From Candidatus Lachnoclostridium avicola (lineage in GTDB: Bacteria > Bacillota > Clostridia > Lachnospirales > Lachnospiraceae): a stretch of DNA of 64,000 nucleotides. This document shows, one piece after another, positions 2,808 to 53,612 of this stretch. Numbering within the stretch: position 1 is the first letter of the stretch; each line of letters begins with the position of its first letter. The notes under the pieces were generated by a model. That model worked only from the letters and a program-made list of their open reading frames with translations. It was not told where the DNA came from and did not search any database. The position numbers and the translations under genes are program-made. The DNA lies in NCBI GenBank assembly GCA_019114465.1, contig DXFM01000016.1, positions 82 to 64,081 of the forward strand. The letters run 5' to 3'.

Positions 2808-2848
2808 TTGTTTTCCTCCAATTCTTTCAAAAAGCCCATGAGGAAAGT

Positions 2849-18166: not shown

Positions 18167-19606
18167 TTACAAACTTTTTTTCAGTTTCTCCAGAAGAAGG
18201 CTTCTCACGCTGGCCGCGTCCGCCTTTCCCTTCATCTCCCGCATTACCTGCCCCATGAGGAAGGAAAATACCTTCTCCTTTCCGCTTCTGTACTCTTCCA
18301 CGGACTGCTCGCACTGGGCCAGAACCTTGTCCACAGCCTCCTCCAGAGCTTTCTCATCCCGGACAACGGCAAGACCGTGCTCCTCCATATACTGATCCGG
18401 GTCCACATCCTCCCGGAACATGGCGGCAAAAATCTTTTTCGCAGAGTGCGGCGTCACCCGTCCCTCCTCCTCCGCCCGGATCAGAGATGCCAGATGGGCA
18501 GGGGAAAATCTCAGGTTCTGAGCCTCCAGGCCTTCCTCCTTCATGAGCCTCATGGTCTCCCCCATGAGCCAGGCAGCGGTCTTCCGGCCGTTTCCGGAAA
18601 GTTTTGCCGTCTCCTCATACAGTTCCGCCATGTAGACGGAGGAGGTGAGAACAGAGGCATCGTACTCCGTCAGCCCGTAAACCTCCTGCATCTGTCTCTG
18701 CCGTTCCTTCCGGAGTATGGGCTGGCGGGAGCGGATCTTATGCAGCAGCTCCTCGCTCACCACAATGGGAGGAAGATCCGGATCGGGAAAATAGCGGTAA
18801 TCTTTCGCGTCCTCCTTGGACCGCATGGGGCGGGAGGATTCCTTGTTCTCGTCCCAGCGTCTCGTCTCCTGGACCACGGCCTTTCCCTCTTCCAGCAGCT
18901 CGATCTGCCGTTCCCGCTCCCCTTCCACCGCGTGGGCGATGGCCTTAAAGGAGTTTAAGTTCTTCATCTCCGTCCGGATGCCGAAGGTATCTGAGCCAAC
19001 TTCCCGCACAGACAGGTTCACATCCGCCCGCATGGATCCCTCCTGGAGTTTGCAGTCGGATACCTTCAGATACTGAAGGGTGTCCCGCAGAGTCTCCAGA
19101 TAGGCGATCACCTCGTCGGCGCTCCTCATGTCCGGCTCGGACACAATCTCAATCAGAGGCACGCCGCTCCGGTTGAAGTCCACCAATGAGCAGTCCCCCC
19201 ACTCGTCGTGGATCAGCTTTCCCGCGTCCTCCTCCATGTGGATCTCGTGGATGCGGATGGCTTTCTTTCCCGCCGCCGTCTCAATCTCCACCTTTCCGTC
19301 GTGGCAGATGGGCAGATACAGCTGGGAAATCTGATAGTTCTGCGGGTTGTCCGGGTAAAAATAATTCTTCCGGTCAAACCGGCTGTACCGGTTCACCTCA
19401 CAGTTTAGGGCCATCCCCGCCGCCAGGGCAAATTCCAGAACCTTCTTATTTAATACGGGAAGAGCCCCGGGAAAGCCGGCGCACACCGGACAAGTCTGGG
19501 TGTTGGGCGCCGCCCCGAACCGGGTGGAGCAGCCGCAGAAGATTTTGGTCCTGGTGGCCAGCTCCACATGGACCTCCAGGCCGATTACCGTCTCATACTG
19601 TTTCAT
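18167..19606 (-). CDS. gatB: Asp-tRNA(Asn)/Glu-tRNA(Gln) amidotransferase subunit B
   Basis: VIGLEVHVEL, FDRKNYFYPD, YRYFPDPDL. Confidence 0.98.
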   Translation of the reverse strand: MKQYETVIGLEVHVELATRTKIFCGCSTRFGAAPNTQTCPVCAGFPGALPVLNKKVLEFALAAGMALNCEVNRYSRFDRKNYFYPDNPQNYQISQLYLPICHDGKVEIETAAGKKAIRIHEIHMEEDAGKLIHDEWGDCSLVDFNRSGVPLIEIVSEPDMRSADEVIAYLETLRDTLQYLKVSDCKLQEGSMRADVNLSVREVGSDTFGIRTEMKNLNSFKAIAHAVEGERERQIELLEEGKAVVQETRRWDENKESSRPMRSKEDAKDYRYFPDPDLPPIVVSEELLHKIRSRQPILRKERQRQMQEVYGLTEYDASVLTSSVYMAELYEETAKLSGNGRKTAAWLMGETMRLMKEEGLEAQNLRFSPAHLASLIRAEEEGRVTPHSAKKIFAAMFREDVDPDQYMEEHGLAVVRDEKALEEAVDKVLAQCEQSVEEYRSGKEKVFSFLMGQVMREMKGKADAASVRSLLLEKLKKSL

Positions 19607-21102
19607 GAACGCTCTCCTCCTTCTCTCTTCCATACTTCCTTCCAGGTTCCCCGCAGAGCCTCGCAGGCAAAGGCAGCCCGAAATACCTGATCCTCCCGGA
19701 ACCGGTTTCCCATGATCTGGATTCCCACCGGCAGTCCCTTTTCGTCCAGACACCAGGGCATGGTAAGTCCCGGAATTCCCGCCAGGTTGGCGGCCACCGT
19801 GTCAATATCTCCCAGGTACATCTTTAACGGATCGGAAAGGCTCTCGCCCAGCCGGGGAGCCGTGGTGGGCGCGGCAGGGGCCAGCAGTACATCGTACTTT
19901 TCAAACGCCTGGTCAAAAGCTCCCCGCACCAGAGCGCGCACCTTCAACGCCTTCAGATAATAGGCGTCATAGTAGCCGGAGCTGAGCACAAAGGTTCCCA
20001 GAAGAATTCTCCGGCGGACCTCCGGCCCGAAGCCTTCCGTCCGGCTCTTTTTATACATCTCATGGAGGCCGTCCTCCGGGCCTTTCTCCGCCCGGTACCC
20101 GTATTTCACTCCGTCAAACCGCTCCAGGTTGGAGCTGGCCTCGGCGGAAGCGATCACATAGTAGGCGGGAATCACATAGTCCTCCAGGCCCAGGGAGAAG
20201 GTCTCCACCAGGGCGCCGGCCTTCTTTAAGGCTTCTCCCGCCTGTAAAATTCCGTCCCGCACCGCGGGATCCGTTCCCTCTCCGATGTAGGCTTCCGGAA
20301 TTCCCACCCGCAGGCCTTCCGCTCCCCCTGCCATGTTGTCCCGATTCTCCGGGACCTCAATCTTCAGGGGCGTTCCCGCCGCGCTGGTGGCATCCTTCGG
20401 ATCGTGAACCGCAAGAATTTTGAGAAGGGCGGCACAGTCTGCCGCGTCCCTGCCGATGGGGCCGATCTGATCCAGGGAAGACCCATAGGCGATAAGCCCG
20501 TACCGGGAAACGGCGCCGTAGGTGGGTTTGATACCCGTGACGCCGCACCAGGAGGAGGGCTGGCGGATGGAACCGCCGGTGTCAGACCCCAGAGCCGCAG
20601 GGGCCTCTCCCGCCGCCACAGCGGCGCAGGATCCGCCGGAGGAACCTCCCGGAGCCCGGCCTGTATCCCAGGGATTTTTCGTAGGTCCAAAGTACGAGGT
20701 TTCTGTGGTGCTTCCCATGGCGAATTCATCCATGTTGGTCTTTCCCAGAGCCACCGCTCCCGCCTGCTCCAGAAGCTCTGCGGCGGTGGCGGAGTAGGGC
20801 GGCACAAAATTCGCAAGAATTTTGGAGCAGCAGGTGGTGGGGATTCCCCTGGTGCAGATATTATCCTTCACCGCCACCGGAACTCCCGCCAGAGGGCCGG
20901 TATATCTCCCCTCCCGGATACCCTGATCCACTTCTTTCGCCCGCTTCACGGCCGCATCGCCGTCCAGACGGACGAAGGCGTGAATCCGGCCCTCTTCCTT
21001 TTTCGCCCGGTCCAGAAACGAACGGACCGCCTCCTCGCTGGTAAATTCTCCCTGTCTGATCCGCTCCCCGATGGAAACGGCTGTCATCTCCCAGATTTCC
21101 AT
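19603..21102 (-). CDS. gatA: Amidotransferase subunit A
   Basis: Amidase signature GGSSGGS, GSDTGGSIRQP. Confidence 0.98.
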   Translation of the reverse strand: MEIWEMTAVSIGERIRQGEFTSEEAVRSFLDRAKKEEGRIHAFVRLDGDAAVKRAKEVDQGIREGRYTGPLAGVPVAVKDNICTRGIPTTCCSKILANFVPPYSATAAELLEQAGAVALGKTNMDEFAMGSTTETSYFGPTKNPWDTGRAPGGSSGGSCAAVAAGEAPAALGSDTGGSIRQPSSWCGVTGIKPTYGAVSRYGLIAYGSSLDQIGPIGRDAADCAALLKILAVHDPKDATSAAGTPLKIEVPENRDNMAGGAEGLRVGIPEAYIGEGTDPAVRDGILQAGEALKKAGALVETFSLGLEDYVIPAYYVIASAEASSNLERFDGVKYGYRAEKGPEDGLHEMYKKSRTEGFGPEVRRRILLGTFVLSSGYYDAYYLKALKVRALVRGAFDQAFEKYDVLLAPAAPTTAPRLGESLSDPLKMYLGDIDTVAANLAGIPGLTMPWCLDEKGLPVGIQIMGNRFREDQVFRAAFACEALRGTWKEVWKREGGERS

Positions 21103-21112
21103 ATATTTCCTC

Positions 21113-21406
21113 CTATTCCACCGTCTTCGGAACTACGTACTGTCCGTCTTCCTGTCCAGGCGCTCCGGAAAGGAGCTCCTCCCTCATGCTTCCGTTGGTA
21201 ACCTCATCCTCCCGGAACACATTGCCGATCTCGTAGGGATGAACCATGGGCTCCACGCCGGAGGTATCCAGCTCGTTCATCTTTTCCACGTATCCCAGCA
21301 TCTTCTCCATCTCTGCCGCAGCCTGCGCTCTCTCCTGTCCCGACAGCTCCAGCTTTGCCAGAATCAGCACATTTTCCATGGTTGTCTCATCAATTTTTCC
21401 GCTCAT
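21113..21406 (-). CDS. gatC: Amidotransferase subunit C
   Basis: LAKLEL, NVFRED, YVVPK; immediately before gatA. Confidence 0.95.
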   Translation of the reverse strand: MSGKIDETTMENVLILAKLELSGQERAQAAAEMEKMLGYVEKMNELDTSGVEPMVHPYEIGNVFREDEVTNGSMREELLSGAPGQEDGQYVVPKTVE

Positions 21407-21422
21407 TGTCTCTGCCTCCTTC

Positions 21423-22751
21423 TTACGGCGTCAGCCTTCCCATATCTCTCGGGAACAGGCATCCCTCTCTCACGTTGTCCTCTCCCAGCAGCTGAACCGT
21501 CAGACGCTCCAGGCCGATTCCCAGGCCGCCGTGGGGCGGCATGCCGCACCGGAACGCCTCCAGATATCCTTCCATTCCCTCATCTGTCATTCCCCTGGCC
21601 GCCATCTTATCCATGAGCATCTGGTAGTCGTGGATTCTCTGGCCGCCGGTGGTGATCTCCAGCCCTTTGTAGAGCAGGTCAAAGCTCAGAGTGTAACGGC
21701 TGTCCTCCGGATCGTCCATGGCGTAGAAGGGACGCTTTTTCGACGGGTAGTGGGTGATGAACACAAAATCGCTTCCCAGCTTTTCCTTCGCGTAGGTTCC
21801 GATCAGGCTCTCCTCCTCCGGCTCCAGATCAAAAGGCGCTCTCGCCGGCCGGCCGTAGGTCTCCGACACCAGGCGCTTCGCCTCGTCAAACCGCAGGGCC
21901 GGGATGGCAGAGATTTCCGGAACTGTGACGCCCAGAAGCTCCAGCTCCCTGCTGTACTCTCTCTTCAGAAGTTCCATGACGTAACGAAGCATTTCCGTCT
22001 CCATACCCATCACGTCCTCCATGCCCCGGATGTATCCCATCTCAAAGTCCAGGCTGGTGTACTCGTTTAAATGACGTCTGGTGTTGTGCTTCTCCGCCCG
22101 GAACACCGGTCCGGTCTCAAAAACCCGGTCAAACACTCCCACCATCATCTGCTTGTAAAACTGAGGGCTCTGGGCCAGCACCGCCGGCTTGTGGAAATAG
22201 CTGAGCTTGAAAATATTGGCTCCGCCCTCCGCTCCCTTCGCCCCGATCTTCGGAGTGTGGATCTCCGTAAAGCCCTGGCTGTACAGGAAATCGCGGAAGC
22301 CCCGGACAATTCCCTCCTGAATCCGGAATCTGGCCCGCTCCCGCACATTTCTCAGAGAAATGGCCCGGTGATCCAGTCTGGCCTCCAGGGAAGCGCCCAT
22401 CTTCCACTTGTCCACGGGAAGGGGCAGGGGACCGGCGGAGACGGAGAGCATTTCCGCCCCCGTCACGGCGATCTCCACTCCGTGGGGCGCCCGCGCTTCC
22501 CGGCGGAGCACTCCCTCCACCCGGATGGTGCAGCCCTCCCGGATGTCTCCCGCCTCCTCAAAGGTCTTCTTGTCAAATACCGTCTGCAGCAGTCCTTCCG
22601 CCTGGCGGAGCACCACAAAGACGATCTCTCCCATATTTCTCACCCGGTGGACGGCTCCCTCCGTCTTCACCGTCTCTCCCTCCAGTTCCGGCGCGGTCAG
22701 CCGGGAAATGGGAAGGGTATCATACGTTTTCATTCCTGTAATCTGTTCCAT
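21423..22751 (-). CDS. aspS: Non-discriminating (archaeal-type, short) aspartyl-tRNA synthetase
   Basis: LAQSPQFYKQ, FRAE, GMPPHGG.GIGLER; no GAD insertion; co-operonic with gatCAB. Confidence 0.92.
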   Translation of the reverse strand: MEQITGMKTYDTLPISRLTAPELEGETVKTEGAVHRVRNMGEIVFVVLRQAEGLLQTVFDKKTFEEAGDIREGCTIRVEGVLRREARAPHGVEIAVTGAEMLSVSAGPLPLPVDKWKMGASLEARLDHRAISLRNVRERARFRIQEGIVRGFRDFLYSQGFTEIHTPKIGAKGAEGGANIFKLSYFHKPAVLAQSPQFYKQMMVGVFDRVFETGPVFRAEKHNTRRHLNEYTSLDFEMGYIRGMEDVMGMETEMLRYVMELLKREYSRELELLGVTVPEISAIPALRFDEAKRLVSETYGRPARAPFDLEPEEESLIGTYAKEKLGSDFVFITHYPSKKRPFYAMDDPEDSRYTLSFDLLYKGLEITTGGQRIHDYQMLMDKMAARGMTDEGMEGYLEAFRCGMPPHGGLGIGLERLTVQLLGEDNVREGCLFPRDMGRLTP

Positions 22752-22821
22752 CTGTGTTTCCTCCTTTTCTCGTTCCGGGGACCTGAGCCAAAAACTGCCG
22801 CCAGGGAAGTTTTTTAGAAAA

Positions 22822-23195
22822 TAAAAAAGTCCCGGAACATTCACTTTTAATGAATCTTCCGGGACGGGATCAACTTCTTCCCGCGGTGCCACCCGCATTG
22901 CCATTCCTCTGCGGAAAACTTCCGCAAAATCCTGGCCTCTCATGAAGGACGCCGCATGCGCCGGCCCGTATGGCGAGACTATCCCTCTCGCTTTTACAGA
23001 CCACCTTGCCTGCTGCCGGGCCAACACCCGTAACGCCTTCCCGCTTAACGCGCAGTACACGTGCCGCCCTACTTACCGTTCAGACGGCCGGCTCCGGAGT
23101 GTTCCCTTCCCTCTTTCTTCCTGCAGACGCTCTCAGTCGGTGACGTCCGCTTCCTGTCGGCCTCCGGGGGGTGAGTCTCCTTCCATGCCTTTGCT
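22822..23195 (-). ncRNA. T-box riboswitch (Asn specifier AAC) with terminator
   Basis: Stem I with GACTGAGAG apical motif; specifier GAAC at 23101-23104; AATGCGGGTGGCACCGCG T-box; GTCCCGGAA...TTCCGGGAC-T6 terminator. Confidence 0.92.
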
Positions 23196-23270: not shown

Positions 23271-24479
23271 TCACATCTTCCGGATCCGCTCCACCGCTTC
23301 CTTTGTGCTCTCGTGGCTTCCGAAGGCCGTAAGCCGGAAGTATCCCTCTCCGGACGGGCCGAAGCCGGATCCAGGGGTTCCGATGACGCCGGCGTGGTCC
23401 AGCAGATAGTCAAAGAACTCCCAGGAAGTCATGCCTGACGGGGTCTTCATCCAGATATAGGGGGAATTGACTCCTCCGCAGGCCTGATAGCCGCAGGAGA
23501 TCAGACCTTCCCGGATCACAGCGGCATTCTCCATATAGTAGGCCACCTGTTCCTTTATCTGTTTTTGTCCGTCGGGCGTGTACACTGCCTCTCCCGCTTT
23601 CTGAACGATGTAGGGAGTCCCGTTGTACTTGGTTCCCTGTCTGCGGAACCACATATCCCTCAGGCTCGCTCCATCTCTCTTCAGCTCCTTCGGCACCACC
23701 GTAAATCCTAAGCGCACACCGGTAAATCCGGCATTTTTGGAGAAGCTGCGGAACTCGATGGCGCAGGTCTTGGCTCCGTCGCACTCGTAGATGGTGTGGG
23801 GAATTCCCTCCTCCGTAATGTAAGCCTCATAGGCAGCGTCATAGAGAAGAATGGACCCGCTTCTGTTGGCGGCGTCCACCCACTTCTGAAGCTCTTCCTT
23901 CCGGATGGCCGCTCCCGTAGGGTTGTTGGGGAAGCATAAGTATACCAGCTCCGGCATCTTTTCCGGAATCTGGGGCACAAATCCATTCTCCAGCGTACAG
24001 GGCATATAGGTGACGCCGGCATACCGTCCGGTGGCCCCATCGTACTCTCCGGTCCGCCCAGCCATGACGTTCGTGTCCAGATATACGGGGTACACCGGAT
24101 CACACACAGCGATGTGTACGTCACCGGAGAACATTTCCTGAGTGTTTCCACAGTCGCATTTCGCTCCGTCGGAGACGAAGATCTCGTCGGCGCTGATGTC
24201 GCAGCCCCGGTCCTGATAATCGTGTTTTGCGATCACGGAGCGGAGAAATTCGTATCCCTGTTCCGGTGCATAGCCGTGAAAGGTCTCCGCCCGGCCCATC
24301 TCATCCACTGCCCGGTGCATGGCCTCCGTCACCGCGGGAGCCAGGGGCAGGGTCACATCTCCAATTCCCAGCTTAATCAGATTCCGGTCAGGATGAGCCT
24401 GCTGAAAAGCTGCCGTCCGTCTGGCTGTTTCCGAAAACAGATAGCTCCCCTGAAGTTTTTCATAATTATGATTGATCAT
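23271..24479 (-). CDS. dapL: LL-diaminopimelate aminotransferase
   Basis: LGIGDVTLPL, FVSDGAKCD, SFSKNAGFTGVR, PGSGFG.SGEGY. Confidence 0.95.
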   Translation of the reverse strand: MINHNYEKLQGSYLFSETARRTAAFQQAHPDRNLIKLGIGDVTLPLAPAVTEAMHRAVDEMGRAETFHGYAPEQGYEFLRSVIAKHDYQDRGCDISADEIFVSDGAKCDCGNTQEMFSGDVHIAVCDPVYPVYLDTNVMAGRTGEYDGATGRYAGVTYMPCTLENGFVPQIPEKMPELVYLCFPNNPTGAAIRKEELQKWVDAANRSGSILLYDAAYEAYITEEGIPHTIYECDGAKTCAIEFRSFSKNAGFTGVRLGFTVVPKELKRDGASLRDMWFRRQGTKYNGTPYIVQKAGEAVYTPDGQKQIKEQVAYYMENAAVIREGLISCGYQACGGVNSPYIWMKTPSGMTSWEFFDYLLDHAGVIGTPGSGFGPSGEGYFRLTAFGSHESTKEAVERIRKM

Positions 24480-24493
24480 GTTTCGTTCCTCCT

Positions 24494-25069
24494 CTATTCG
24501 TTCTCATAAAGCACCAGAACCATTCTGGCTGACTCCGCCATGGTGCGCCCCGTCTCCATGCTCCGTTTCTGAAGATAGCGGTGGGCCGCCTCCTCAGACA
24601 GACGGTTTCTCTCCATGAGCAGCTGCTTGGCTTTCCGGATGGCCTGCTCGTCCTCCGGGCTTCTTGTCTTTCCATGGCGGACATTCTCCTGGGAATGGGA
24701 ACCTCCCGCTCTCATTCCCCTTCTCCGGTCTCCCCGGCTCATCATCATGCGCACCGTGTTGACCAGATCAAATACCCGGATGGGGGAGGAGACGGTCATC
24801 ACATCCGGCGGGCAGTCGGAAAGCATGGCCTCCGACCCAATAACCAGCAGCTCTACTCCCTCCGGGAGGTACTCCCGAAGCTGGGAACAGTGCATATCCT
24901 TTAACCGGACGCTGCTGATCACAATCCCGCCGTCCATCATGGACGCCTCCTGCAAAGCCTGGGCACCGGTCGAACAGCAGACAGCGTCCTGGAAACCGTT
25001 TCTCTCCAGCGCCCGTCCGATCTTTTTTCCATCCTCTTCCTTGGAAAACACTATGACGATGCCCTTCAT
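24494..25069 (-). CDS. ANTAR-domain RNA antiterminator with pseudo-receiver domain (NitR/AmiR/NasT-like)
   Basis: C-terminal IRKAKQLLMERNRLSEEAAHRYLQKRSM; receiver fold lacks the acidic pocket and phospho-Asp. Confidence 0.9.
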   Translation of the reverse strand: MKGIVIVFSKEEDGKKIGRALERNGFQDAVCCSTGAQALQEASMMDGGIVISSVRLKDMHCSQLREYLPEGVELLVIGSEAMLSDCPPDVMTVSSPIRVFDLVNTVRMMMSRGDRRRGMRAGGSHSQENVRHGKTRSPEDEQAIRKAKQLLMERNRLSEEAAHRYLQKRSMETGRTMAESARMVLVLYENE

Positions 25070-25117
25070 CCTCTTCCTCCCATCTCCCGAATTACTCCCA
25101 TATCCGATAACCGCCCA

Positions 25118-26404
25118 TCAGTACCGGTACAGGTACTCTCTCAGCTCCCAGGAAGTGACCTGGCGCTCGTAGTCCATCCACTCCTCCTGCCTGCAGGCGG
25201 CGTACCGTCTGCACAGAGGTTCTCCCAGAGTCTTTTTCACAAATTCATCTTCCCGGAAACAGGAGATGGCCGTTCCCAGGTTTTCCGGGAGGCGGCCCAG
25301 GCTCTCCCCCTCAGGAATCTCCAGCTTTCTGGCGATGCCGTCCAGCCCCGCCTCCAGGCAGAGAGCCAGAAGCAGGTAGGGGTTGGCCGATCCGTCCGCT
25401 CCCCGGAACTCCACGCGTGTACGCGTACCGCGTACAGGAGGAATTCTCAGCAGACAGTTCTCCCTCCGGGAGGACCAGTACAGCTCCGTGGGCGCCTTCG
25501 TGCCGGACACCAGGCGCTTATAGGAATTGACCAGGGGATTGGACACAGCGGTCATCGCCTTCATATGCTCCAGCAGACCGCTGACAAACCACACTGCCTC
25601 CCTGGAAAAACCGCCTTTCTCCTCACCGGCAAACACGTTTTTTCCGTCCCTGCAGAGGGTAAAATGAAGGTGTACTCCCGATCCCTCCGCGTCTCCCAGA
25701 GGCTTTGGCATAAAGGTGGCGTGAAGGCCGTGGCGCTTGGCCACCGAACGGACCGTGGAGCGGAAGGTGACAATCCCGTCCGCCGCCTCCATCAGTCCCA
25801 TCCGCTTCAGATCGATGCCGTGCTGGCCCGGGGAGATCTCGTGGCGGGAGGCTTCCACCTCCACCCCCATCTCCTCCAGAGTCCGCACCATCTCCCGCCT
25901 GGCATTCTCCCCCAGATCCACCGGATGGGCGTCCAGATATCCGGCCCGCTCATGGGTCACCACCGTCGGGCATCCGTCGTCATCGCTGTGGAACAGGAAA
26001 AATTCGCACTCCGGCCGCACGGACAGTTCAAATCCCAGAGCCGCCGCCCGGCGCTCCGCCTGTTTGAGCACCTCCCGGGAATCCTCCTCAAAGGGGGTTC
26101 CGTCCTCCTTGCAGAGGCTGCACAGCAGGCGGGCCACATTGCCCGGCTGACTCTTCCAGGGAAGGATGGAGAATGTGGAAGGATCCGGCTTCAGCATCAG
26201 CTCCACTCCGTCCTCCCCGTCCCGGCCTGCCAGGAAGGTGCCGTCCACAAAAAAGGGCTCTTCCTTCAGCATAGCAAATTTCGCCGGCGTCACTGCGATA
26301 CTCTTTAAAGTTCCCGTAATATCCGTAAACTGAAGGCGGACGGTTTCCACCCCTTCCTCCTCCATCTGCTTCAGCATGGCATTGATGGTCTCACGGTTCA
26401 ACAC
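25118..26404 (-). CDS. Glutamine synthetase type I-like protein with degenerate active site
   Basis: RLQFTD, ATFMPKP, NSYKRL, ANPYL retained; QHEID>QHGID, GYEAP>GTKAP, NRS>REN. Confidence 0.85.
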   Translation of the reverse strand: MLNRETINAMLKQMEEEGVETVRLQFTDITGTLKSIAVTPAKFAMLKEEPFFVDGTFLAGRDGEDGVELMLKPDPSTFSILPWKSQPGNVARLLCSLCKEDGTPFEEDSREVLKQAERRAAALGFELSVRPECEFFLFHSDDDGCPTVVTHERAGYLDAHPVDLGENARREMVRTLEEMGVEVEASRHEISPGQHGIDLKRMGLMEAADGIVTFRSTVRSVAKRHGLHATFMPKPLGDAEGSGVHLHFTLCRDGKNVFAGEEKGGFSREAVWFVSGLLEHMKAMTAVSNPLVNSYKRLVSGTKAPTELYWSSRRENCLLRIPPVRGTRTRVEFRGADGSANPYLLLALCLEAGLDGIARKLEIPEGESLGRLPENLGTAISCFREDEFVKKTLGEPLCRRYAACRQEEWMDYERQVTSWELREYLYRY

Positions 26405-27903
26405 AGATTCCTCCTTCCCAGTTCCAGGTTGGTGTAGCCCATCAGAGATTCATCCACCTCTCTGGCTGCCTCCAGACCTTCTCTCATGGCCCACACCACC
26501 AGGGACTGACCCCGGCGCATGTCACCGGCGGTAAAGACTGCCGGGTTGGCCGTCCTGTGGCTGCCGTCCGCCGGCGCTGTGCGGCCCCTGGAATCCAGAG
26601 AGACGCCGAAAGACTCGGCGCAGTAGCTCTCCGCCCCGGTAAATCCCGCAGCGATGAGCACCAGATCCGCCGGCAGCTCCTTTTCAGAACCGGCTCTGGG
26701 AACCATTTTCGGCCGTCCGCCGGCGTTCTTCTCCGGCTCCAGTTCCACAGTGCGCACCCGGTTCACATTCCCGTTTTTGCCGGCCAGAAACTCTGTGGCC
26801 GTGGTGCAGTATCTTCTCGGGTCAGCGCCGTAGGCCCAGGCCGCCTCCTCCTGGCCATAGTCTGTCTTCTTCACCCTGGGCCACTCCGGCCAGGGATTGT
26901 CTTCTCTTCTTGTCTCCGGCGGCTCCGGCATCATCTCCAGCTGGACCACCGATCTGGCTCCCAGGCGGACCGCCGTGGCCACACAGTCGTTTCCCGTGTC
27001 GCCGCCTCCGATGACTACCACCCGTTTTCCTGCCACCTTCGGATACTTCTTATCCTTTAAGTCGGAATCCAGCAGGCTTTTGGTCACCGCCGTCAGGAAA
27101 TCCACGGCAAAGTAAATGCCGCCCGCCTCTCTGCCGGGAACCGGAATGTCCCTGGCTTTTCCGGCTCCGCAGGCCAGAACCACCCGGTCATATTCCTTTA
27201 GCAGGTTCTCTCCCGTCACATCCCGGCCCACGTCCGTCCCTGTGATGAAGCGGATTCCCTCTGCCTCCAGCAGGCGGATTCTTCTCTCCACCACAGACTT
27301 GTCCAGCTTCATGTTGGGGATGCCGTACATGAGCAGACCGCCGGGACGGTCGCTTTTTTCAAATACTGTCACCTGATGTCCCCTGCGGTTTAAGAGAAAG
27401 GCTGCCGCCAGTCCCGACGGCCCGCTTCCCACCACAGCCACGGTCTTTCCAGTGCGGACTCTGGGCGGCTCCGGCTTTACCCAGCCGGAGGCGAAAGCCC
27501 GCTCTATGATCTGCAGCTCATTTTCCTTGGTGGACACCGGATCTCCGTGGAGCCCGCAGGTACAGGCCGCCTCGCAGAGAGCCGGACATACTCTTCCCGT
27601 AAACTCCGGGAAACAGCTGGTCTTGGTCAGTCTCCGGTAAGCCTGCTCCCAGTTTCCCGTACACACCAGGTCATTAAACTCCGGCACCAGATTTTTTAAG
27701 GGGCAGCCGGACACCATCCCGTTTAATTCCATGGCCGACTGACAGAAGGGAACGCCGCAGGCCATACACCTGGCGCCCTGAATCTCCTGCTCCTTTTTCG
27801 GAAGCAGGCGGTGAAACTCCTTAAAATCCTTCACCCGCTCCTTCGGCGGCCTCACGCTTCCGTTCTCTCTGCCGTACTCTAAAAATCCCGTTGGTTTCCC
27901 CAT
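26398..27903 (-). CDS. gltD: Glutamate synthase small subunit
   Basis: MGKPTGF, RCMACGVPFC, GSGPSG, GGGDTGNDC, RRGQSLVVW. Confidence 0.97.
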   Translation of the reverse strand: MGKPTGFLEYGRENGSVRPPKERVKDFKEFHRLLPKKEQEIQGARCMACGVPFCQSAMELNGMVSGCPLKNLVPEFNDLVCTGNWEQAYRRLTKTSCFPEFTGRVCPALCEAACTCGLHGDPVSTKENELQIIERAFASGWVKPEPPRVRTGKTVAVVGSGPSGLAAAFLLNRRGHQVTVFEKSDRPGGLLMYGIPNMKLDKSVVERRIRLLEAEGIRFITGTDVGRDVTGENLLKEYDRVVLACGAGKARDIPVPGREAGGIYFAVDFLTAVTKSLLDSDLKDKKYPKVAGKRVVVIGGGDTGNDCVATAVRLGARSVVQLEMMPEPPETRREDNPWPEWPRVKKTDYGQEEAAWAYGADPRRYCTTATEFLAGKNGNVNRVRTVELEPEKNAGGRPKMVPRAGSEKELPADLVLIAAGFTGAESYCAESFGVSLDSRGRTAPADGSHRTANPAVFTAGDMRRGQSLVVWAMREGLEAAREVDESLMGYTNLELGRRNLC

Positions 27904-27905
27904 GA

Positions 27906-30900
27906 TCACGCCTCCCTCTTATTTCCAGTACTCTCGTAAAATGCCTCGATCTGCGCCTGTTCTCCCGTCAGCCCCTGTTCCTCCAGTCTGGCACACAGAA
28001 GCATCACCTTCCGGTAATCGTTGGGAATGATCTTTTTAAATTTCGGCAGATATTCCTCAAAATGCTCCAGGATCTCCTTTCCTCTCGGGGATCCGGTATA
28101 TCTGGTGTGTTCCTCAATCAGGCCTTTCAGCTCCTTGATGTCATAGCGGTTTTCCACCTTCTCCATGGCCACCATCTCTTTGTTCAGATGGCGGTACAGC
28201 TCGCTCTCCTCGTCCAGCACGTAGGCAATGCCTCCGCTCATGCCGGCGGCAAAGTTTTCTCCCGTCTTTCCCAGGACTACCACCCGGCCTCCGGTCATAT
28301 ACTCACAGCCGTGGTCACCTACGCCTTCCACCACGGCGCTGGCCCCGGAGTTTCTCACGCAGAACCGCTCTCCCGCCACGCCGTTGATATAGGCCGCTCC
28401 GCCGGTGGCTCCGTAGAGAGCCACGTTTCCGATGATAATATTCTCATCGGGACGGTATCCCGCATGCTCCGGAGGCGCCACGGAAAGAATTCCGCCGGAC
28501 AGGCCTTTGCCGAAATAGTCGTTGCTGTCTCCCTTTAAGTTCAGGGTCAGGCCTTTGGGTATAAAAGCCCCGAAACTCTGTCCGCCGGCTCCCCGGCAGT
28601 TCACCACGCAGGTGTTGTCCGGCAGTCCGTCCTTAAAGTGTCTGGTGATCTCCGAACCCAGGATTGTGCCGAAGGTCCGGTCCGTATTGGAGATTTCCAC
28701 AGATACGGCACAGGATTTTCCCGTCTCCAGAGTCTTCTGGAAAGCCGGCAGCAGCACCCGCACGTCCATACTCTTCTCCAGGTGGAAGTCGTAAGCCTTC
28801 TCCTGGCTGAACACTGCTCCCGGACCGCTGTGGCGTTCTCCCAGAATCTGGCTCAAATCCATCTCCGCCTGACGGCTGCCTGCCTTCGCCGGTTTTACCG
28901 CCAGCAGATCCGTCCGGCCCACCAGCTCCTCCACGGAGCGGACTCCCAGGGTAGCCATATATTCTCTCAGCTCCGCGGCGATAAACCGCATGAAGTTCTC
29001 CACATACTCCGGTTTTCCGGAAAAACGCTTCCGAAGTTCCGGATTCTGAGTGGCAATTCCCATGGGACAGGTATCCAGGTTGCACACCCGCATCATCACG
29101 CAGCCCAGAGCCACCAGGGGCGCGGTGGCAAAGCCGAATTCCTCCGCTCCCAGCATGGCCGCCACAGCCACATCCCGGCCGGTCATCAGCTTGCCGTCCG
29201 TCTCAATGGCCACCCGGTCTCTCAGGCCGTTTTTCATCAGAGTCTGGTGGGTCTCCGCAACCCCCAGCTCCCAGGGAAGGCCGGCATTATGGATGGAGCT
29301 GCCGGGAGCCGCCCCCGTTCCTCCGTCGCTTCCGGAGATGAGGACCACCTGGGCTCCCGCTTTCGCCACTCCCGCGGCCACCGTTCCCACACCGGCCTCG
29401 CTCACCAGCTTTACGGAGATTCTGGCGTCCCGGTTGGCATTTTTCAGGTCGAAGATCAGCTGGGCCAGATCCTCAATGGAGTAGATGTCGTGGTGGGGCG
29501 GCGGGGAGATCAGAGTCACTCCAGGCGTGGAGTGTCTGGTTTTCGCCACCCAGGGATAAACCTTGCCCGCCGGCAGGTGTCCGCCCTCTCCCGGCTTCGC
29601 TCCCTGGGCCATTTTGATCTGGATCTCCTTGGCGCTCACCAGATAGCGGCTGGTGACGCCGAACCGGCCGGAAGCCACCTGCTTGATGGCAGAGCACCGG
29701 TCATTGTCCGTCCCGGCGGAATCCAGGCGTTCCTCGCTCTCTCCGCCCTCTCCCGTATTGGACTTTCCGCCCAGGCGGTTCATGGCGATGGCCAGAGCCT
29801 CGTGAGCCTCCTGGGAGATGGAACCGTAGGACATGGCTCCTGTCTTGAACCGTTTTACGATCTCCTCCACCGGCTCCACTTCCTCCAGGGGAACGGGATG
29901 GTCCGCCGGAACAAATTCCATCAGGCTGCGGAGACTGCCGTAGCACTCCCGGTCCGCCGCTTTCGTATATTTCTTAAACATCTCATAGTCGCCGGTTCTC
30001 ACCGACTGCTGAAGGAGATGGATGGTCTCCGGATTGTACCGGTGCACCTCCCCCTGGCTTCTCATCTTGTGGTCTCCCACGCTGTCAAAGGTCAGGTCCG
30101 TCCACAGTCCCAGGGGATCGAAGGCTCTGGAGTGGAGCTCGTCCGCCTCCCTGGCAATATCTTCCAGGGTGATGCCTCCCACGCGGCTCACTGTGCCGGT
30201 AAAATACCGGTCGATCACATCCTGGGAAATGCCCACCGCCTCGAAAATCTTCGCTCCCTGATAGGACTGGATGGTGGAAATGCCCATTTTGGAGGCGATT
30301 TTGACAATGCCGTGAAGCACGGCGCTCCGGTAATCCGCCTCCGCCGCGGAGTAATCTTTGTCCAGCATATGCTCGTCTATGAGCTGTCCCACCGTCTCCA
30401 GGGCCAGGTAGGGATTGACGGCGCTGGCGCCGTAACCTAAAAGAGCGGCGAAATGGTGGACATCCCTGGGCTCTCCTGATTCCAGGATCACCGACATGGC
30501 CGTCCTTCTCCTGGTCTGCACCAGATGCTGGTGAACGGCGGAAACCGCCAGCAGGGAGGGAATCGCCACATGGTTTTCATCCACTCCCCGGTCGGACAGG
30601 ATCAAAATAGCCGCCCCGTCCCGGTAGGCCTTATCCACCTCCACGAACAGCTGCTCGATGGCCCGTTCCAGTCTGGCGCTCTTATAGTAGGTGATGGGGA
30701 GAACCGCCGTTTTCAGACGGCTGCTCTTCAGCTCCTTCAATTTCAGCATATCCGTGTTGCTCAGAATCGGCTGGCTGATCTTTAACACCTGGCAGTTTTC
30801 CGCCAGGTCTTCCAGCAGATTTCCGTCCCGTCCCACATAGACGGCGGTGCTGGTGACGATCTCCTCCCGGATGGCGTCGATGGGCGGATTGGTCACCTGG

Positions 30901-32450
30901 GCAAACATCTGCTTGAAATAGTGGAACAGCGGCTGAGGCTCGTCGGAGAGAGCCGCCAGAGGAGTATCAGAACCCATGGCTCTCGTTCCCTCCGCCCCGT
31001 TTAAAGCCATCTCCCGGATGGAGGTGCGGTACTCCTCATAGGTGTAGCCGAAAGCCTTCTGCAGTCTCGCCCTCTGCTCCGGCGTGTGCACCGGCACGCT
31101 CTTGTTGGGGATCTTCAAATCCTCCAGGCGCACCAGGCCGCCGTCCAGCCACTCCCCGTAGGGCTGCCGTCCGGCGTAATGGCTCTTGATCTCCTCATCC
31201 TGGATAATCTTGCCCGCTCTGGTGTCCACCAGAAGCATTTTTCCGGGATGGAGGCGCTCCTTCAGCACGATCTCCTCCTCCGGCACCGGAAGTACGCCCA
31301 CTTCAGAAGCCAGGATCACCGTCCCGTCCTTTAACACGTAGTACCGGGAGGGACGCAGGCCGTTCCGGTCCAGAACGGCGCCCATCACGTCTCCGTCGGA
31401 GAACACGATGGAGGCCGGGCCGTCCCAGGGCTCCATCATGGTGGCGTAGTACTGGTAAAACTCCCTCCGCCTCTGATCCATGGCCCGGTTGTTCTCCCAG
31501 GGCTCCGGAATGGCGATCATTACCGCCAGGGGCAGGTCCATGCCGTTCATCATGAGAAATTCCAGGGCGTTGTCCAGCATGGCGGAATCCGACCCCTTTG
31601 CGTTAATTACCGGGAAAATCTTGTGCAGCTCCTCGTCCAGACAGGGGGACTCCATGGTCTCCTCCCTGGCCAGCATTTTGTCCGCGTTTCCCCGGATAGT
31701 ATTGATCTCTCCGTTGTGAACGATGAGACGGTTGGGATGAGCCCTCTCCCAGCTGGGCTCCGTGTTGGTGCTGAACCGGGAATGGACCATGGCGATGGCG
31801 GACTCATAGTGCTCCGACTGCAGGTCCGGATAGAAGGTGCGCAGCTGGCCTACCAGAAACATTCCCTTGTACACGATGGTACGGCTGGACAGGGAGGCCA
31901 CATAGGTGCCGTCGTTGCTCTGCTCAAACACCCGCCGGGTGACGTAGAGCTTCCGGTCAAATTCCAGGCCCTTCGCCGTTCCCTCCGGCCGTCCCACAAA
32001 TCCCTGCATGATGCAGGGCATGCACTCCCGGGCTTTGTGGCCCAGGACGTCAGGACGGACCGGCACCTCGCGCCAGCCTAAAAATTCCATGCCCTCCTTC
32101 TCCACGATCACCTCAAACATCTTTTTGGCCTGGTTCCTCTTCAGCTCATTCTGAGGGAAGAAAAACATGCCGATGCCGTAATCCCTCTCTTCTCCCAGGG
32201 AAATGCCGATCTTTTCACACTCTTCCTTAAAAAACCGGTGGGAGATCTGAAGGAGTATTCCCACTCCGTCTCCCGTCTTTCCCTCGGCGTCCTTTCCAGC
32301 CCGGTGTTCCAGGTTCTCCACTATGCGCAGGGCCTGCTCCACCGTGTTCCGGCTCTTTCTTCCTTTCATATCCACCACGGCTCCGATGCCGCAGTTATCG
32401 TGTTCAAACTGGGGCCGGTAAAGGCCCTGCTGGTCCGGGTTCTGTTTCAT
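27906..32450 (-). CDS. gltB: Glutamate synthase large subunit
   Basis: EHDNCGIG Ntn cysteine, HSRFSTNT, QGAKPGEGG, CVMMRVCNLDTC 3Fe-4S. Confidence 0.98.
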   Translation of the reverse strand: MKQNPDQQGLYRPQFEHDNCGIGAVVDMKGRKSRNTVEQALRIVENLEHRAGKDAEGKTGDGVGILLQISHRFFKEECEKIGISLGEERDYGIGMFFFPQNELKRNQAKKMFEVIVEKEGMEFLGWREVPVRPDVLGHKARECMPCIMQGFVGRPEGTAKGLEFDRKLYVTRRVFEQSNDGTYVASLSSRTIVYKGMFLVGQLRTFYPDLQSEHYESAIAMVHSRFSTNTEPSWERAHPNRLIVHNGEINTIRGNADKMLAREETMESPCLDEELHKIFPVINAKGSDSAMLDNALEFLMMNGMDLPLAVMIAIPEPWENNRAMDQRRREFYQYYATMMEPWDGPASIVFSDGDVMGAVLDRNGLRPSRYYVLKDGTVILASEVGVLPVPEEEIVLKERLHPGKMLLVDTRAGKIIQDEEIKSHYAGRQPYGEWLDGGLVRLEDLKIPNKSVPVHTPEQRARLQKAFGYTYEEYRTSIREMALNGAEGTRAMGSDTPLAALSDEPQPLFHYFKQMFAQVTNPPIDAIREEIVTSTAVYVGRDGNLLEDLAENCQVLKISQPILSNTDMLKLKELKSSRLKTAVLPITYYKSARLERAIEQLFVEVDKAYRDGAAILILSDRGVDENHVAIPSLLAVSAVHQHLVQTRRRTAMSVILESGEPRDVHHFAALLGYGASAVNPYLALETVGQLIDEHMLDKDYSAAEADYRSAVLHGIVKIASKMGISTIQSYQGAKIFEAVGISQDVIDRYFTGTVSRVGGITLEDIAREADELHSRAFDPLGLWTDLTFDSVGDHKMRSQGEVHRYNPETIHLLQQSVRTGDYEMFKKYTKAADRECYGSLRSLMEFVPADHPVPLEEVEPVEEIVKRFKTGAMSYGSISQEAHEALAIAMNRLGGKSNTGEGGESEERLDSAGTDNDRCSAIKQVASGRFGVTSRYLVSAKEIQIKMAQGAKPGEGGHLPAGKVYPWVAKTRHSTPGVTLISPPPHHDIYSIEDLAQLIFDLKNANRDARISVKLVSEAGVGTVAAGVAKAGAQVVLISGSDGGTGAAPGSSIHNAGLPWELGVAETHQTLMKNGLRDRVAIETDGKLMTGRDVAVAAMLGAEEFGFATAPLVALGCVMMRVCNLDTCPMGIATQNPELRKRFSGKPEYVENFMRFIAAELREYMATLGVRSVEELVGRTDLLAVKPAKAGSRQAEMDLSQILGERHSGPGAVFSQEKAYDFHLEKSMDVRVLLPAFQKTLETGKSCAVSVEISNTDRTFGTILGSEITRHFKDGLPDNTCVVNCRGAGGQSFGAFIPKGLTLNLKGDSNDYFGKGLSGGILSVAPPEHAGYRPDENIIIGNVALYGATGGAAYINGVAGERFCVRNSGASAVVEGVGDHGCEYMTGGRVVVLGKTGENFAAGMSGGIAYVLDEESELYRHLNKEMVAMEKVENRYDIKELKGLIEEHTRYTGSPRGKEILEHFEEYLPKFKKIIPNDYRKVMLLCARLEEQGLTGEQAQIEAFYESTGNKREA

Positions 32451-32501: not shown

Positions 32502-34190
<1,689 letters not shown>

Positions 34191-34213
34191 TCATTGGAAT
34201 ACCTTTTACATAA

Positions 34214-34282
34214 GAAAAAGGGGTCTTAATCCCTGGAACCGCCGGTTGTGCCGGCCGTCCGGTTTTAAGACGCCCTTGTCTC
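34214..34282 (-). terminator. Leader terminator with overlapping ANTAR-type hairpin upstream of pyrG-gltBD
   Basis: AGAC-AAGGGC-GTCT hairpin competes with AAGGGCGTCTTAA...TTAAGACCCCTTTTTC; promoter TTTACA-17-TAAGAT upstream. Confidence 0.7.
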
Positions 34283-34370: not shown

Positions 34371-34398
34371 TTGACAATTTTCCGGAAACGAGTATACT
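34371..34398 (+). promoter_or_regulatory. SigA promoter of the GS-III gene, with CodY-box-like spacer
   Basis: TTGACA-16 bp-TATACT; AATTTTCCGGAAACG overlaps it. Confidence 0.75.
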
Positions 34399-34408
34399 AC
34401 AGACCATA

Positions 34409-34456
34409 AAGCAAGGGTGCTTCGGTTTTGAAAAAGGCCGAACACCCTTCTTTTTT
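34409..34456 (+). terminator. Leader terminator with overlapping ANTAR-type hairpin upstream of GS-III
   Basis: AAGC-AAGGGT-GCTT hairpin competes with AAGGGTG.TTCGG...CCGAACACCCTT.TTTTTT. Confidence 0.75.
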
Positions 34457-34577
34457 ATATTCAGGCGTCAGAAAACGGTCTGTTTTCCCACACAGTATTC
34501 CCCTTTATTCATACATAAATGCGGGAAACTGGCCGGACGCCTCCAAAGGCAGTAGCAGAAGGAAAGGAGAGCTTTTT

Positions 34578-36668
<2,091 letters not shown>

Positions 36669-36777: not shown

Positions 36778-38259
36778 ATGGATCAGCATTTTACATCACA
36801 GACAGTCAGCACAGACAGCCGCCCCGCCCCCATCTCCGCCGGATATGCTTCCGGAGTGCGGGAAGAGTGCGGGATCTTCGGCATCTATGACACTGCCGGC
36901 GGCGGCGTGTCCAGGGAAATCTACCGGGGCCTGTGCGCCCTGCAGCACCGGGGCCAGGAGTCCTGCGGCATCGCCGTCTCTTCCACCGACGGTCCGCCTA
37001 AAAATATTCGGTTTCACAAGGGACTGGGGCTGGTAAGCGAGGTCTTCGACGAACCCCGGATCGCCTCCCTCACCGGCAATCTGGGCGTCGGCCACGTCCG
37101 CTACTCCACTGCCGGATCCACCACCGTGGAAAACGCCCAGCCCCTGGTGCTCAACTACATCAAGGGAACCCTGGCCCTGGCCCACAACGGCAATCTGATC
37201 AACGCCGCCAGGCTGCGCCGGGAGCAGGAGTACACCGGCGCCCTCTTTCACACCACCATCGACTCGGAGGTAATCGCCTACGGCATCGCCAGGGAACGGG
37301 TCCGCTGCGCCTCCGTGGAGGAGGCGGTGAAACGGACTGCCGTCCACCTGGAAGGAGGCTATGCTCTGGTGATCACCAGTCCCAGAAAACTGATCGGAGT
37401 CCGGGATCCCTACGGCCTGAAGCCCCTCTGTCTGGGACAGAAGGGATCCTCTTGGATTCTCGCCTCGGAGAGCTGCGCTCTCTCCTCCATCGGGGCGGAA
37501 TTTGTCCGGGACATCCGGCCGGGAGAGATCGTCACCATCACCGCGGACGGCATCCACTCCGACTACATGGAAGCGCCTCAGGCCCGGCCGGCCCACTGTG
37601 TATTTGAATACATTTACTTTGCCCGCTTGGACAGCGTCATCGACGGCGTCTCCGTCTACAATGCCCGCTTAAAAGGCGGAGCCGCCCTGGCCCGGTCCTG
37701 TCCCGCAGACGCCGACCTGGTGGCAGGCGTTCCCGACTCCGGCCTGACGGCGGCTGTGGGCTTTTCCCAGGCCTCCGGCATCCCCTTTGCCCTGGCCTTT
37801 TACAAAAACAGCTACGTGGGCCGCACCTTCATCAAACCCACCCCGGAGGAACGGCAGAGCGCCGTGCAGATGAAATTAAGCGTGCTGGAGCCGGTGGTTC
37901 AGGGCAAGCGGATCGTGCTGGTGGACGACTCCATCGTCCGCGGCACCACCATGTCCGCCCTGATAAAAATGCTCCGGAAGGCCGGAGCGAAGGAGGTTCA
38001 TGTGCGGATTTCCTCCCCGCCCTTCCTTCACCCCTGCTACTTCGGGACAGACGTTCCCTCCAACCGGCAGCTCATCGCCTCCGACCACTCTGTGGAGACG
38101 GTCCGCAGCCTGATCGGCGCCGACTCCCTGGCCTACCTGTCCATGGAGGACCTGGCGGACATGACGGAAGGCCTTCCCCTGTGCCGCGCCTGTTTTGACG
38201 GCCATTACCCCATGGAAGTTCCGGAGGGAGATATCCGCAACGCCCTGGAGGAACTGTGA
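36778..38259 (+). CDS. purF: Amidophosphoribosyltransferase
   Basis: EECG propeptide/Cys, LQHRGQES, LVDDSIVRGTT, Fe-S cysteines CVFE, PCYFG, CRAC. Confidence 0.97.
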   Translation: MDQHFTSQTVSTDSRPAPISAGYASGVREECGIFGIYDTAGGGVSREIYRGLCALQHRGQESCGIAVSSTDGPPKNIRFHKGLGLVSEVFDEPRIASLTGNLGVGHVRYSTAGSTTVENAQPLVLNYIKGTLALAHNGNLINAARLRREQEYTGALFHTTIDSEVIAYGIARERVRCASVEEAVKRTAVHLEGGYALVITSPRKLIGVRDPYGLKPLCLGQKGSSWILASESCALSSIGAEFVRDIRPGEIVTITADGIHSDYMEAPQARPAHCVFEYIYFARLDSVIDGVSVYNARLKGGAALARSCPADADLVAGVPDSGLTAAVGFSQASGIPFALAFYKNSYVGRTFIKPTPEERQSAVQMKLSVLEPVVQGKRIVLVDDSIVRGTTMSALIKMLRKAGAKEVHVRISSPPFLHPCYFGTDVPSNRQLIASDHSVETVRSLIGADSLAYLSMEDLADMTEGLPLCRACFDGHYPMEVPEGDIRNALEEL

Positions 38260-45245: not shown

Positions 45246-45250
45246 CGTAA

Positions 45251-45323
45251 GCTGCCCAGACGGTCGACATATCTGCTTCCACGTGCTCCCTGTGGTTCAC
45301 CCACTGTCCGTCAGTTGCACGTC
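45251..45323 (-). ncRNA. ZMP/ZTP (pfl) riboswitch
   Basis: ACGTGCAACTGACGG..GTGG...CCACAGGGAGCACGT...CCGTCTGGGCA upstream of purO/purH. Confidence 0.92.
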
Positions 45324-45409
45324 CTGATTTCATATTAGCCGATGAATTTAAAAATTGCAAGTATTTTCTTTGAAACATGGGATCTCTCCGGCGCTCTGCC
45401 CGGATCATC

Positions 45410-53228: not shown

Positions 53229-53234
53229 AGACAT

Positions 53235-53575
53235 GAGCAAGACGATAAGCCGGGTTATGTCGTTGGATGGTCATCTATCTAGGCCTGGCGTCACCGCCAG
53301 GCTCCAGCGGCCTACCCGGAAGCGGACGGGCCGCCCATGCTCCCTGTTCGGCCTTGCTTCGGATGGGGTTTACATGTGCCCTTCCTGTTACCAGGAAGGC
53401 GGTAGTCTCTTACACTGCCTTTCCACCCTTACAGGAATACTCCTGCGGTTTATTTCTGTTGCACTGTCCTTGGAGTCGCCTCCACCAGACGTTATCTGGC
53501 ATCCTGCCCTGTGAAGCCCGGACTTTCCTCCCCTGCAGCCTTTCGGTTCTGCAGCAGCGACCATCTGTCTTACTC
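53235..53575 (-). ncRNA. rnpB: RNase P RNA (bacterial type A)
   Basis: GAGGAAAGTCCGGGCT, AGTGCAACAG, CAACGACATAACCCGGCTTA; terminal P1 helix. Confidence 0.97.
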
Positions 53576-53612
53576 AAAACTTCATAATTTTATCACATTT
53601 TTTTTCGTCTGT

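Follow-up and report, generated by a model that had tools for sequence, protein, structure and literature searches.

Here we describe two adjacent genes in a 64,000-nucleotide stretch of DNA from Candidatus Lachnoclostridium avicola (contig DXFM01000016.1; hereafter the window). One encodes a 428-aa protein derived from type I glutamine synthetase (GS-I; P0001, 25118..26404, minus strand), identified from its open reading frame (ORF), its Pfam domains and its alignment to Bacillus subtilis glutamine synthetase (GS; PDB 4LNF), and the other encodes a 191-aa NitR-type ANTAR protein (P0002, 24494..25069, minus strand), identified from its ORF and Pfam domain. P0001 has lost catalytic residues and is under purifying selection, the two genes are inherited together, the receiver domain of P0002 is a pseudo-receiver, and the leaders of two divergent operons at the locus carry a hairpin that overlaps a terminator. 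We propose that P0001 no longer makes glutamine and has been kept as the regulatory partner of P0002, a model in which it would act as a sensor and to which the comparative evidence gives, in our judgement, an even chance. We hold with more confidence that P0001 differs from a normal GS, that selection acts on it and that its function is coupled to that of the ANTAR protein.

Active site of the GS-like protein

P0001 possesses both GS domains (Gln-synt_N, PF03951, 52.6 bits; Gln-synt_C, PF00120, 334.5 bits) and aligns unambiguously across residues 11-428 with B. subtilis GS (4LNF), its closest solved sequence relative. The AlphaFold2 (AF2) model had a pLDDT (predicted local distance difference test) of 87.9 and a pTM (predicted template modelling score) of 0.91. 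A preliminary description of this DNA, made from the letters alone, had reported a GS-I homologue with several catalytic losses, and each of its residue calls proved correct against 4LNF. In B. subtilis numbering, QHEID has become QHGID (E196G, the n1 metal ligand), the flap GYEAP has become GTKAP (Y303T and E304K), NRS has become REN (R316E, the catalytic Arg, with two Arg, R313/R314, immediately before it) and NGSG has become EGSG (N240E). The RIEESD loop is replaced, the glutamine-lock Arg is changed (R62G) and the RNIY (Tyr) loop carries a 15-residue deletion. The lost positions E196, E304, R316 and R62 are G196, K303, E315 and G63 in the numbering of P0001 itself, and the changes at the flap (E to K) and at the catalytic Arg position (R to E) amount to a charge swap. 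The loss of the NGSG Asn, to which the same description had drawn attention, is real but not diagnostic, because intact GS-I proteins of relatives carry A, C or H there.

The residues E132, E134, E189, H245, R298, R321, E333, R335 and D53 (B. subtilis numbering) are retained, the corresponding positions in P0001 being E132, H245 and E332 (the n2 triad), E134, E189, R297, R320, R334 and D54. Besides the n2 triad, R297 and D54', the former active site also keeps Y156. The n2 metal site (E132, H245, E333) is complete, the n1 site (E134, E189, E196) is incomplete, and 9 of the 12 core catalytic residues are kept. P0001 scored 360.8 bits with the GlnA equivalog model TIGR00653, against a cut-off of 429.15. 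With these 9 of 12 residues, the n1 ligand lost and a score below the GlnA cut-off, a normal GS role for P0001 is very unlikely, and the annotation now given to genes of this type, 'type I glutamate--ammonia ligase', is an overstatement of their probable role.

Selection within the genus

Orthologues of P0001 were found in 7 of the 11 other genomes of the genus, at 72-96% identity. All 8 genes, P0001 included, are open and full length, none being disrupted, and every one is followed by an ANTAR orthologue. The same substitution pattern is found in all 8 and in database relatives as well, and holds down to about 72% identity; at position E196, P0001 has G and the 8 orthologues have G or S, while K303 and E315 are fixed across the clade. 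The pairwise ratio of non-synonymous to synonymous change (dN/dS, method of Nei and Gojobori, NG86) was 0.035-0.18 for the GS-like gene as compared to 0.02-0.07 for canonical glnA of the same genomes; for the two ANTAR sets it was 0.06-0.23 and 0.03-0.15. Thus, the GS-like gene evolves faster than its paralogue, its non-synonymous change being 2-3 times faster, yet it is clearly under purifying selection. The remodelled active-site segments (the E189-G196 strand, the N loop, the flap and the E333 strand) are 0.95-0.98 identical within the clade as compared to 0.83 for the whole protein, and the least conserved part is the remnant of the Tyr-loop; the former active site therefore is still the most constrained region. 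These comparisons support the view that P0001 is not decaying, as had been proposed at the outset from its full-length ORF overlapping gltD, an overlap which we also found.

Co-occurrence with the ANTAR gene

The survey covered 40 genomes of the family and order, which together gave 45 GS-I genes; a copy was called degenerate when at least 1 of the 12 core residues was lost. Since the genomes are related, the counts are descriptive only and no statistical test was applied. In the first batch fetched, an ANTAR gene lay after GS-I at 25 of 30 loci. It had been suggested that active-site loss would go together with both an adjacent ANTAR gene and a type III glutamine synthetase (GS-III). For ANTAR this was borne out, all 22 degenerate copies being followed by an ANTAR gene. 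For GS-III the comparison was uninformative within the family, as all 24 family genomes have it; the 6 genomes of other families without GS-III hold intact GS-I only. Among the 23 intact GS-I copies, 16 have the ANTAR gene, 6 have none in the fetched DNA (in one case the contig ends about 480 nt away) and 1 locus is cut before the expected position.

A quick maximum-likelihood tree placed the degeneration in at least 3-4 independent events. The main GS clades were recovered in a FastTree of the ANTAR partners, and the mirrored trees indicate that the two genes diverged as pairs. Two copies from the same genus (L030 and L033) keep only 4-5 of the 12 core residues and still retain the ANTAR gene, so catalysis is not needed by the module. 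In other genera, three copies with 5-7 of 12 core residues (L040, L041 and L044) also keep the ANTAR gene, and there the dead copy is the only GS-I found. Taken together, these data support P0001 being evolutionarily locked to the pseudo-receiver ANTAR protein. Repeating the homologue search at 50% representatives gained little over the 90% search.

Some copies in the survey deserve separate mention. In six metagenome-derived proteins (P0013-P0016, P0019 and P0025), canonical motifs occur together with degenerate ones or the length is unusual, and we excluded these proteins from the alignments as likely assembly chimeras or fused gene calls. The abundant GS-I proteins of the Blautia type (L009/L010; P0020-P0128; 435-440 aa) carry R316Q, often D53N, a variable flap residue and a shortened Tyr-loop; their 2-oxoglutarate pocket is intact, their gene order is GS-I-ANTAR-aspS-gatCAB, and their score of 443 bits lies just over the cut-off of 429. 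A third GS-like lineage (L055-L059, in genomes G002, G017, G018, G023 and G024) comprises proteins of 391-414 aa with the motifs GQNEID and PGNGxH, partly degenerate with 8-11 of 12 core residues; an ANTAR gene follows, the receiver of which has the K-P motif and N in place of the phospho-Asp. In one genome of the same genus as the window (G007), both GS-I copies are degenerate (L030 with 4 and L053 with 9 of 12 core residues), and glutamine synthesis would depend there on GS-III alone.

The ANTAR protein

P0002 carries an ANTAR domain (PF03861, 53.5 bits). In its AF2 model (pLDDT 77.8), a pseudo-receiver (residues 1-116) is followed by a disordered basic linker (115-135) and a three-helix ANTAR domain (138-189). 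The N-terminal domain has the receiver fold, with five strand-helix units at residues 2-116, and a Foldseek search with the model gave Rv1626, EutV and many receivers as best matches, AmiR also being matched. The absence of the acidic pocket and phospho-Asp, noted in the preliminary description, was confirmed: F8-S9 stand in place of the acidic pair, strand 3 ends with S52/S53, and K-P is replaced by S95-P96. The phospho-Asp, acidic pair and Lys are likewise absent in 33 relatives of the main lineage. P0002 is thus a NitR-type ANTAR protein without phospho-acceptor residues. Also in agreement with that description, no kinase gene is present among pyrG-gltB-gltD-GSlike-ANTAR-dapL, the operon to which the pair belongs. 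Prediction of a complex of P0001 and P0002 (1:1 stoichiometry, each with its own alignment) gave an ipSAE interface score of 0.00 in both runs, and weighs neither way.

A second, intact module in the same genome

The genome to which the window belongs (2.97 Mb, 86% complete) holds on another contig (L001) an intact glnA gene (1486-2829, minus strand; 447 aa). Its product has all catalytic motifs and scored 538.9 bits with TIGR00653, above the cut-off. Directly after it lies a second pseudo-receiver ANTAR gene (904-1458, minus strand), the product of which is 34% identical to P0002, with dapF downstream. The window pair therefore represents a diverged copy of a duplicated glnA-nitR module. The canonical glnA-ANTAR pair co-occurs with the P0001 clade in all 8 genomes. 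The initial proposal that GS-III does the catalysis had missed this intact GlnA and its counterparts in the 7 other clade-bearing genomes, and is not supported as it stands. A second GS-III is also present in the genome of the window. The usual 2-oxoglutarate/ATP sensor was not seen, since this incomplete genome gave only one weak PII-like match (39.8 bits).

Both modules adjoin a gene of the diaminopimelate pathway, dapL following the disabled pair and dapF the intact one. In another genome of the genus (G004), the canonical glnA (L061, 2532-3889) is split into two overlapping ORFs, by a frameshift or an assembly error.

Ligand pockets

GS-I-alpha enzymes of methanogens (Methanothermococcus thermolithotrophicus and Methanosarcina mazei) are activated by 2-oxoglutarate (PMC10799026, PMC11957540). 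The pocket comprises F18', R20', A34', R88', V94', R174, R175 and S191 in the numbering of the M. thermolithotrophicus enzyme, MtGS (PMC10799026), with equivalents in M. mazei (PMC11957540). At these positions we found FRARVRRS or FRSRVRRS in all the other ANTAR-linked GS-I proteins examined, intact or heavily degraded, and FRARVRRS in almost every one of the 120 nearest database homologues; four ANTAR-less GS-I proteins lack the pocket (FRAFIRIA). P0001 belongs to the same subfamily as the methanogen enzymes, but has T21, R23, A37, K84, V90, R169, R170 and S186 at these positions. Its orthologues carry S/Y or S/S/S/K/G at the first five, so that the clade reads T/A/S, R/Y/S, A/S, K and V/G, in an alignment which is unambiguous (VETVRLQF, VESVYLQF and VGSVSLQF against VEFIRLQF). 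Judging from this alignment, the P0001 clade is losing the 2-oxoglutarate pocket typical of the rest of the family. A role as 2-oxoglutarate sensor was considered and rejected for this clade, the pocket being eroded.

Glutamine feedback in B. subtilis GS uses R62 and E304 (PMC10799026). The corresponding residues in P0001 are G63 and K303, and since both lock residues are lost, glutamine sensing of the B. subtilis type is unlikely. The earlier suggestion of a glutamine, glutamate or nucleotide sensor is weakened to this extent. With the pocket eroded and the glutamine lock lost, any metabolite that P0001 senses is probably sensed in the rebuilt active site.

Leader RNAs of the two divergent operons

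The operon containing the pair begins with pyrG, and diverges from a second operon which begins with GS-III followed by purF. The GS-III leader, on the plus strand, has a promoter (TTGACA-16-TATACT, 34371-34398), a hairpin AAGC-AAGGGU-GCUU (34409-34422), which is a candidate ANTAR site, and an intrinsic terminator (34413-34457) overlapping it. The hairpin lies about 5 nt past the predicted start site and within about 10 nt of the promoter, and its loop and 3' arm form the 5' arm of the terminator (fold z = -3.9). In the pyrG-operon leader, on the minus strand, the candidate hairpin is AGAC-AAGGGC-GUCU (34268..34281), and the hexaloop together with the 3' half of the hairpin forms the 5' arm of a long intrinsic terminator (34212..34277; fold z = -6.1). 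Each hexaloop begins with A and has G as its fourth base (consensus C-AAGGGY-G), as do the hexaloops of proven ANTAR sites (PMC3369931). The hairpins are invariant across the genus and the interiors of the terminators vary; one relative shows a compensatory A-U to G-C change in the stem (GAGC-AAGGAU-GCUC).

The same arrangement is present in GS-III leaders of other genera (GGAC-AAAGGC-GUUC, GAAC-AAAGGC-GUUC, GGAC-AAGGGU-GUUC, AGGC-AAAGGC-GUCU and AAGC-AACGGC-GCUU), with an intact or a dead GS-I partner alike. The motif thus fits NitR-type ANTAR proteins generally, and says nothing on which paralogue acts. A second A1/G4 hexaloop occurs at the tip of the terminator in some relatives (G006, and with a bulge G005/G009), but no clear one is seen in the window. 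When the window and the two divergent leaders were scanned against Rfam, no ANTAR-related or glutamine family matched. A search of the whole genome for hairpins with an AAGGG loop returned 139 matches, mostly intragenic; the few others with terminator-like context precede transporter or phosphotransferase system genes unrelated to nitrogen, and a stricter scan recovered the GS-III leader only. No clear motif was seen in the leader of either the canonical glnA or the second GS-III of the same genome. In this genome we found the hairpin/terminator design in these two divergent leaders only.

Proposed mechanism and alternatives

In the model that we propose, P0002 would recognise the C-AAGGGY-G hexaloop hairpin while the leaders of pyrG-gltBD-GSlike-ANTAR-dapL and GS-III-purF are being transcribed, and by binding there would block the overlapping terminator so that transcription proceeds. 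That P0002 antiterminates both divergent operons is the most likely reading of the leaders. The former active site of the GS-like oligomer, remodelled but strongly conserved, would serve to read a metabolite, and the oligomer would hold or release P0002 accordingly, in a manner analogous to AmiC-AmiR and to B. subtilis GS-TnrA/GlnR. We infer the contact between the two proteins, the kind of ligand and the choice of P0002, among the ANTAR paralogues, as the one acting on these leaders.

Several points weigh against this model. An altered enzyme would also fit the 9 of 12 core residues kept, the pocket being highly conserved, and the adjacency of the two genes may be mere inheritance from glnA-nitR. 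Each leader has a single clear hexaloop hairpin, whereas EutV-type targets have two. Two ANTAR paralogues coexist in the genome, and the hairpin motif cannot tell them apart. The support for P0001 as sensor partner of P0002 is comparative only. Finally, the two known regulatory ligand sites of GS-I-alpha, the glutamine lock and the 2-oxoglutarate pocket, are both degraded, so that no ligand can be named.

The strongest alternative is that P0001 is still an enzyme, either a weak GS or a changed carboxylate-amine ligase or transferase, in which the losses are made good by E240 or the shifted R313/R314 and the neighbouring ANTAR gene is a legacy of glnA-nitR. The core residues that are kept include the full n2 site, R297, R320 and R334, conservation within the protein is highest in the former active-site loops, N240E accompanies the loss of E196, and two Arg adjoin the lost R316. 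However, G or S stands in place of the n1 ligand E196, the charge is reversed at both the flap Glu and the catalytic Arg, the score lies under the GlnA equivalog cut-off and far under those of all other NCBIfam ligase models, and sister lineages with 4-5 of 12 residues (L030, L033) still keep the ANTAR gene; we therefore regard an altered enzyme as unlikely. Less probable again is a regulatory subunit which modulates an enzyme rather than the ANTAR protein, in mixed oligomers with intact GlnA or by binding to GS-III or glutamate synthase (GOGAT). GS active sites form between neighbouring subunits, and a dead subunit could poison the active sites next to it; intact GlnA is present alongside this clade in 8 of 8 genomes, and the P0001 gene is translationally coupled to gltD. 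This reading is at odds with the other genera in which the dead copy is the only GS-I found and the ANTAR gene is retained (L040, L041, L044), and the mirrored GS and ANTAR trees point to the ANTAR protein as the constrained partner.

A functionless, decaying duplicate is highly improbable. The lost catalytic residues, the eroded 2-oxoglutarate pocket, the deleted loop and the raised rate of non-synonymous change would be in keeping with decay, but the intact state of all 8 orthologues, the fixation of the substitutions down to about 72% identity and the confidently modelled fold are not, and the pseudogene reading is rejected by the dN/dS values of 0.035-0.18.

Going beyond the window, GS-I-derived proteins in general may be the metabolite receptors of NitR-type ANTAR proteins in gut Clostridia, the module having been duplicated here so that the disabled copy reads a different metabolite; we offer this only tentatively and consider it rather doubtful. 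One copy would have remained an active enzyme with its 2-oxoglutarate pocket, and the other would have lost both and had its active site rebuilt with the charge swap of flap and Arg. In each cell, antitermination would then be fed by two parallel channels for nitrogen or glutamine input.

Relation to known systems

In Clostridium saccharobutylicum NCP262, antitermination controls the GS/GOGAT genes of the glnA-nitR(-gltAB) cluster (Stutz et al. 2007, as summarised in PMC6316151), and Clostridium thermocellum has an ANTAR/GS/GOGAT cluster (PMC4676874). As in these clusters, a small ANTAR gene comes immediately after a GS-I gene in the window, with glutamate synthase genes linked, and the other contig of the same genome carries the ordinary copy of the module. 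Unlike them, the GS-I of the window lacks E196, E304, R316 and R62, the pair being a second, diverged copy, and the gene order pyrG-gltBD-GSlike-ANTAR-dapL differs from glnA-nitR(-gltAB).

Control of a non-phosphorylated pseudo-receiver ANTAR protein by a ligand-binding partner from the same operon is established for AmiC-AmiR of Pseudomonas aeruginosa (PMC3369931, PMC12591593; PDB 1QO0). AmiR resembles P0002 in being a pseudo-receiver ANTAR protein; AmiC, however, has the periplasmic-binding-protein fold, whereas the candidate partner P0001 has that of GS. B. subtilis GS, a trigger enzyme for TnrA/GlnR (PDB 4LNF, 4S0R), is a GS-I-alpha that passes nitrogen status to a regulator by contact. 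Unlike P0001, it is active and senses glutamine via R62 and E304, and its regulators bind DNA, whereas P0002 would bind RNA. The targets of EutV-type proteins (PMC3369931, PMC8934654) share with the window leaders an A1/G4 hexaloop on a short stem competing with a terminator; the hairpins of the window differ in overlapping the 5' arm of the terminator, and form no clear tandem P1-P2 pair.

A GS-I-like pseudoenzyme is also found in the vertebrate lens, where lengsin plays a structural or chaperone-like role. Like P0001 it retains the GS-I fold without GS activity; unlike P0001 it is eukaryotic, and we know of no link of lengsin to an RNA regulator.

The glnA-nitR cluster and partner-controlled pseudo-receiver ANTAR proteins are thus already known (PMC6316151, PMC4676874, PMC3369931), and we found no description of a GS pseudoenzyme as the partner of an ANTAR protein in the searchable literature. 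Particular to the locus described here is the coexistence of intact and disabled modules throughout the genus and, as far as can be judged from sequence, the erosion of the 2-oxoglutarate pocket in the disabled copy together with strong conservation of the charge-swapped former active site. How NitR-type antiterminators sense nitrogen has been an open question since the glnA-nitR cluster was described. To our knowledge, gut Firmicutes mostly lack the classical NtrBC, TnrA or GlnR circuits. If GS-like proteins were the receptors, nitrogen control would be explained for a large share of these bacteria, and P0001 would be a clear bacterial case of an enzyme turned receptor. The genus offers a natural comparison, with an active and a disabled pair in one cell and different ligand pockets, which makes the hypothesis directly testable.

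Organisation of the locus and other features of the window

The pair lies in a tight minus-strand operon. Its first gene is pyrG (CTP synthase, 32502..34118, with the ATG at 34118 as likely start), followed by gltB and gltD (glutamate synthase large subunit, 27906..32450, and small subunit, 26398..27909), the GS-like gene, the ANTAR gene and, as last gene, a DapL-type LL-diaminopimelate aminotransferase (23271..24479). gltB and gltD overlap by 4 nt, and gltD and the GS-like gene by 7 nt; gaps of 48 nt and 14 nt separate the GS-like gene from the ANTAR gene and the ANTAR gene from dapL. P0001 starts with a GTG at 26404, preceded by a GGAGG site, and the gltD stop codon (26398-26400) is overlapped by its start, an arrangement that recurs in the contig of a relative (L007).

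The GS-III gene (glnN, 34578..36668, plus strand) is full length, and its product has all three domains and can be aligned with PDB 3O6X from one end to the other. It was rightly described as intact and divergent, except that it diverges from pyrG at the start of the operon and not from the GS-like gene itself. purF (36778-38259) follows it. Besides GS-III, the two divergent operons jointly encode three glutamine-using amidotransferases (CTP synthase, GOGAT and PurF). In public contigs the context is kept, with GS-III facing pyrG-gltBD-GSlike-ANTAR-dapL, then aspS-gatCAB.

Immediately past the ANTAR operon, aspS-gatCAB (23060..18167) forms a separate tRNA-sensing unit with a T-box leader, which is a sub-threshold Rfam match (RF00230, 46.9 bits, E 4e-9; 22857-23194, minus strand) preceded by a perfect TTGACA-17-TATAAT promoter (23251-23223, minus strand). 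Ordinary Rfam matches elsewhere in the window are a class A RNase P RNA (53230-53576), a cobalamin riboswitch (110-286) and a ZTP riboswitch (45247-45328), all on the minus strand.

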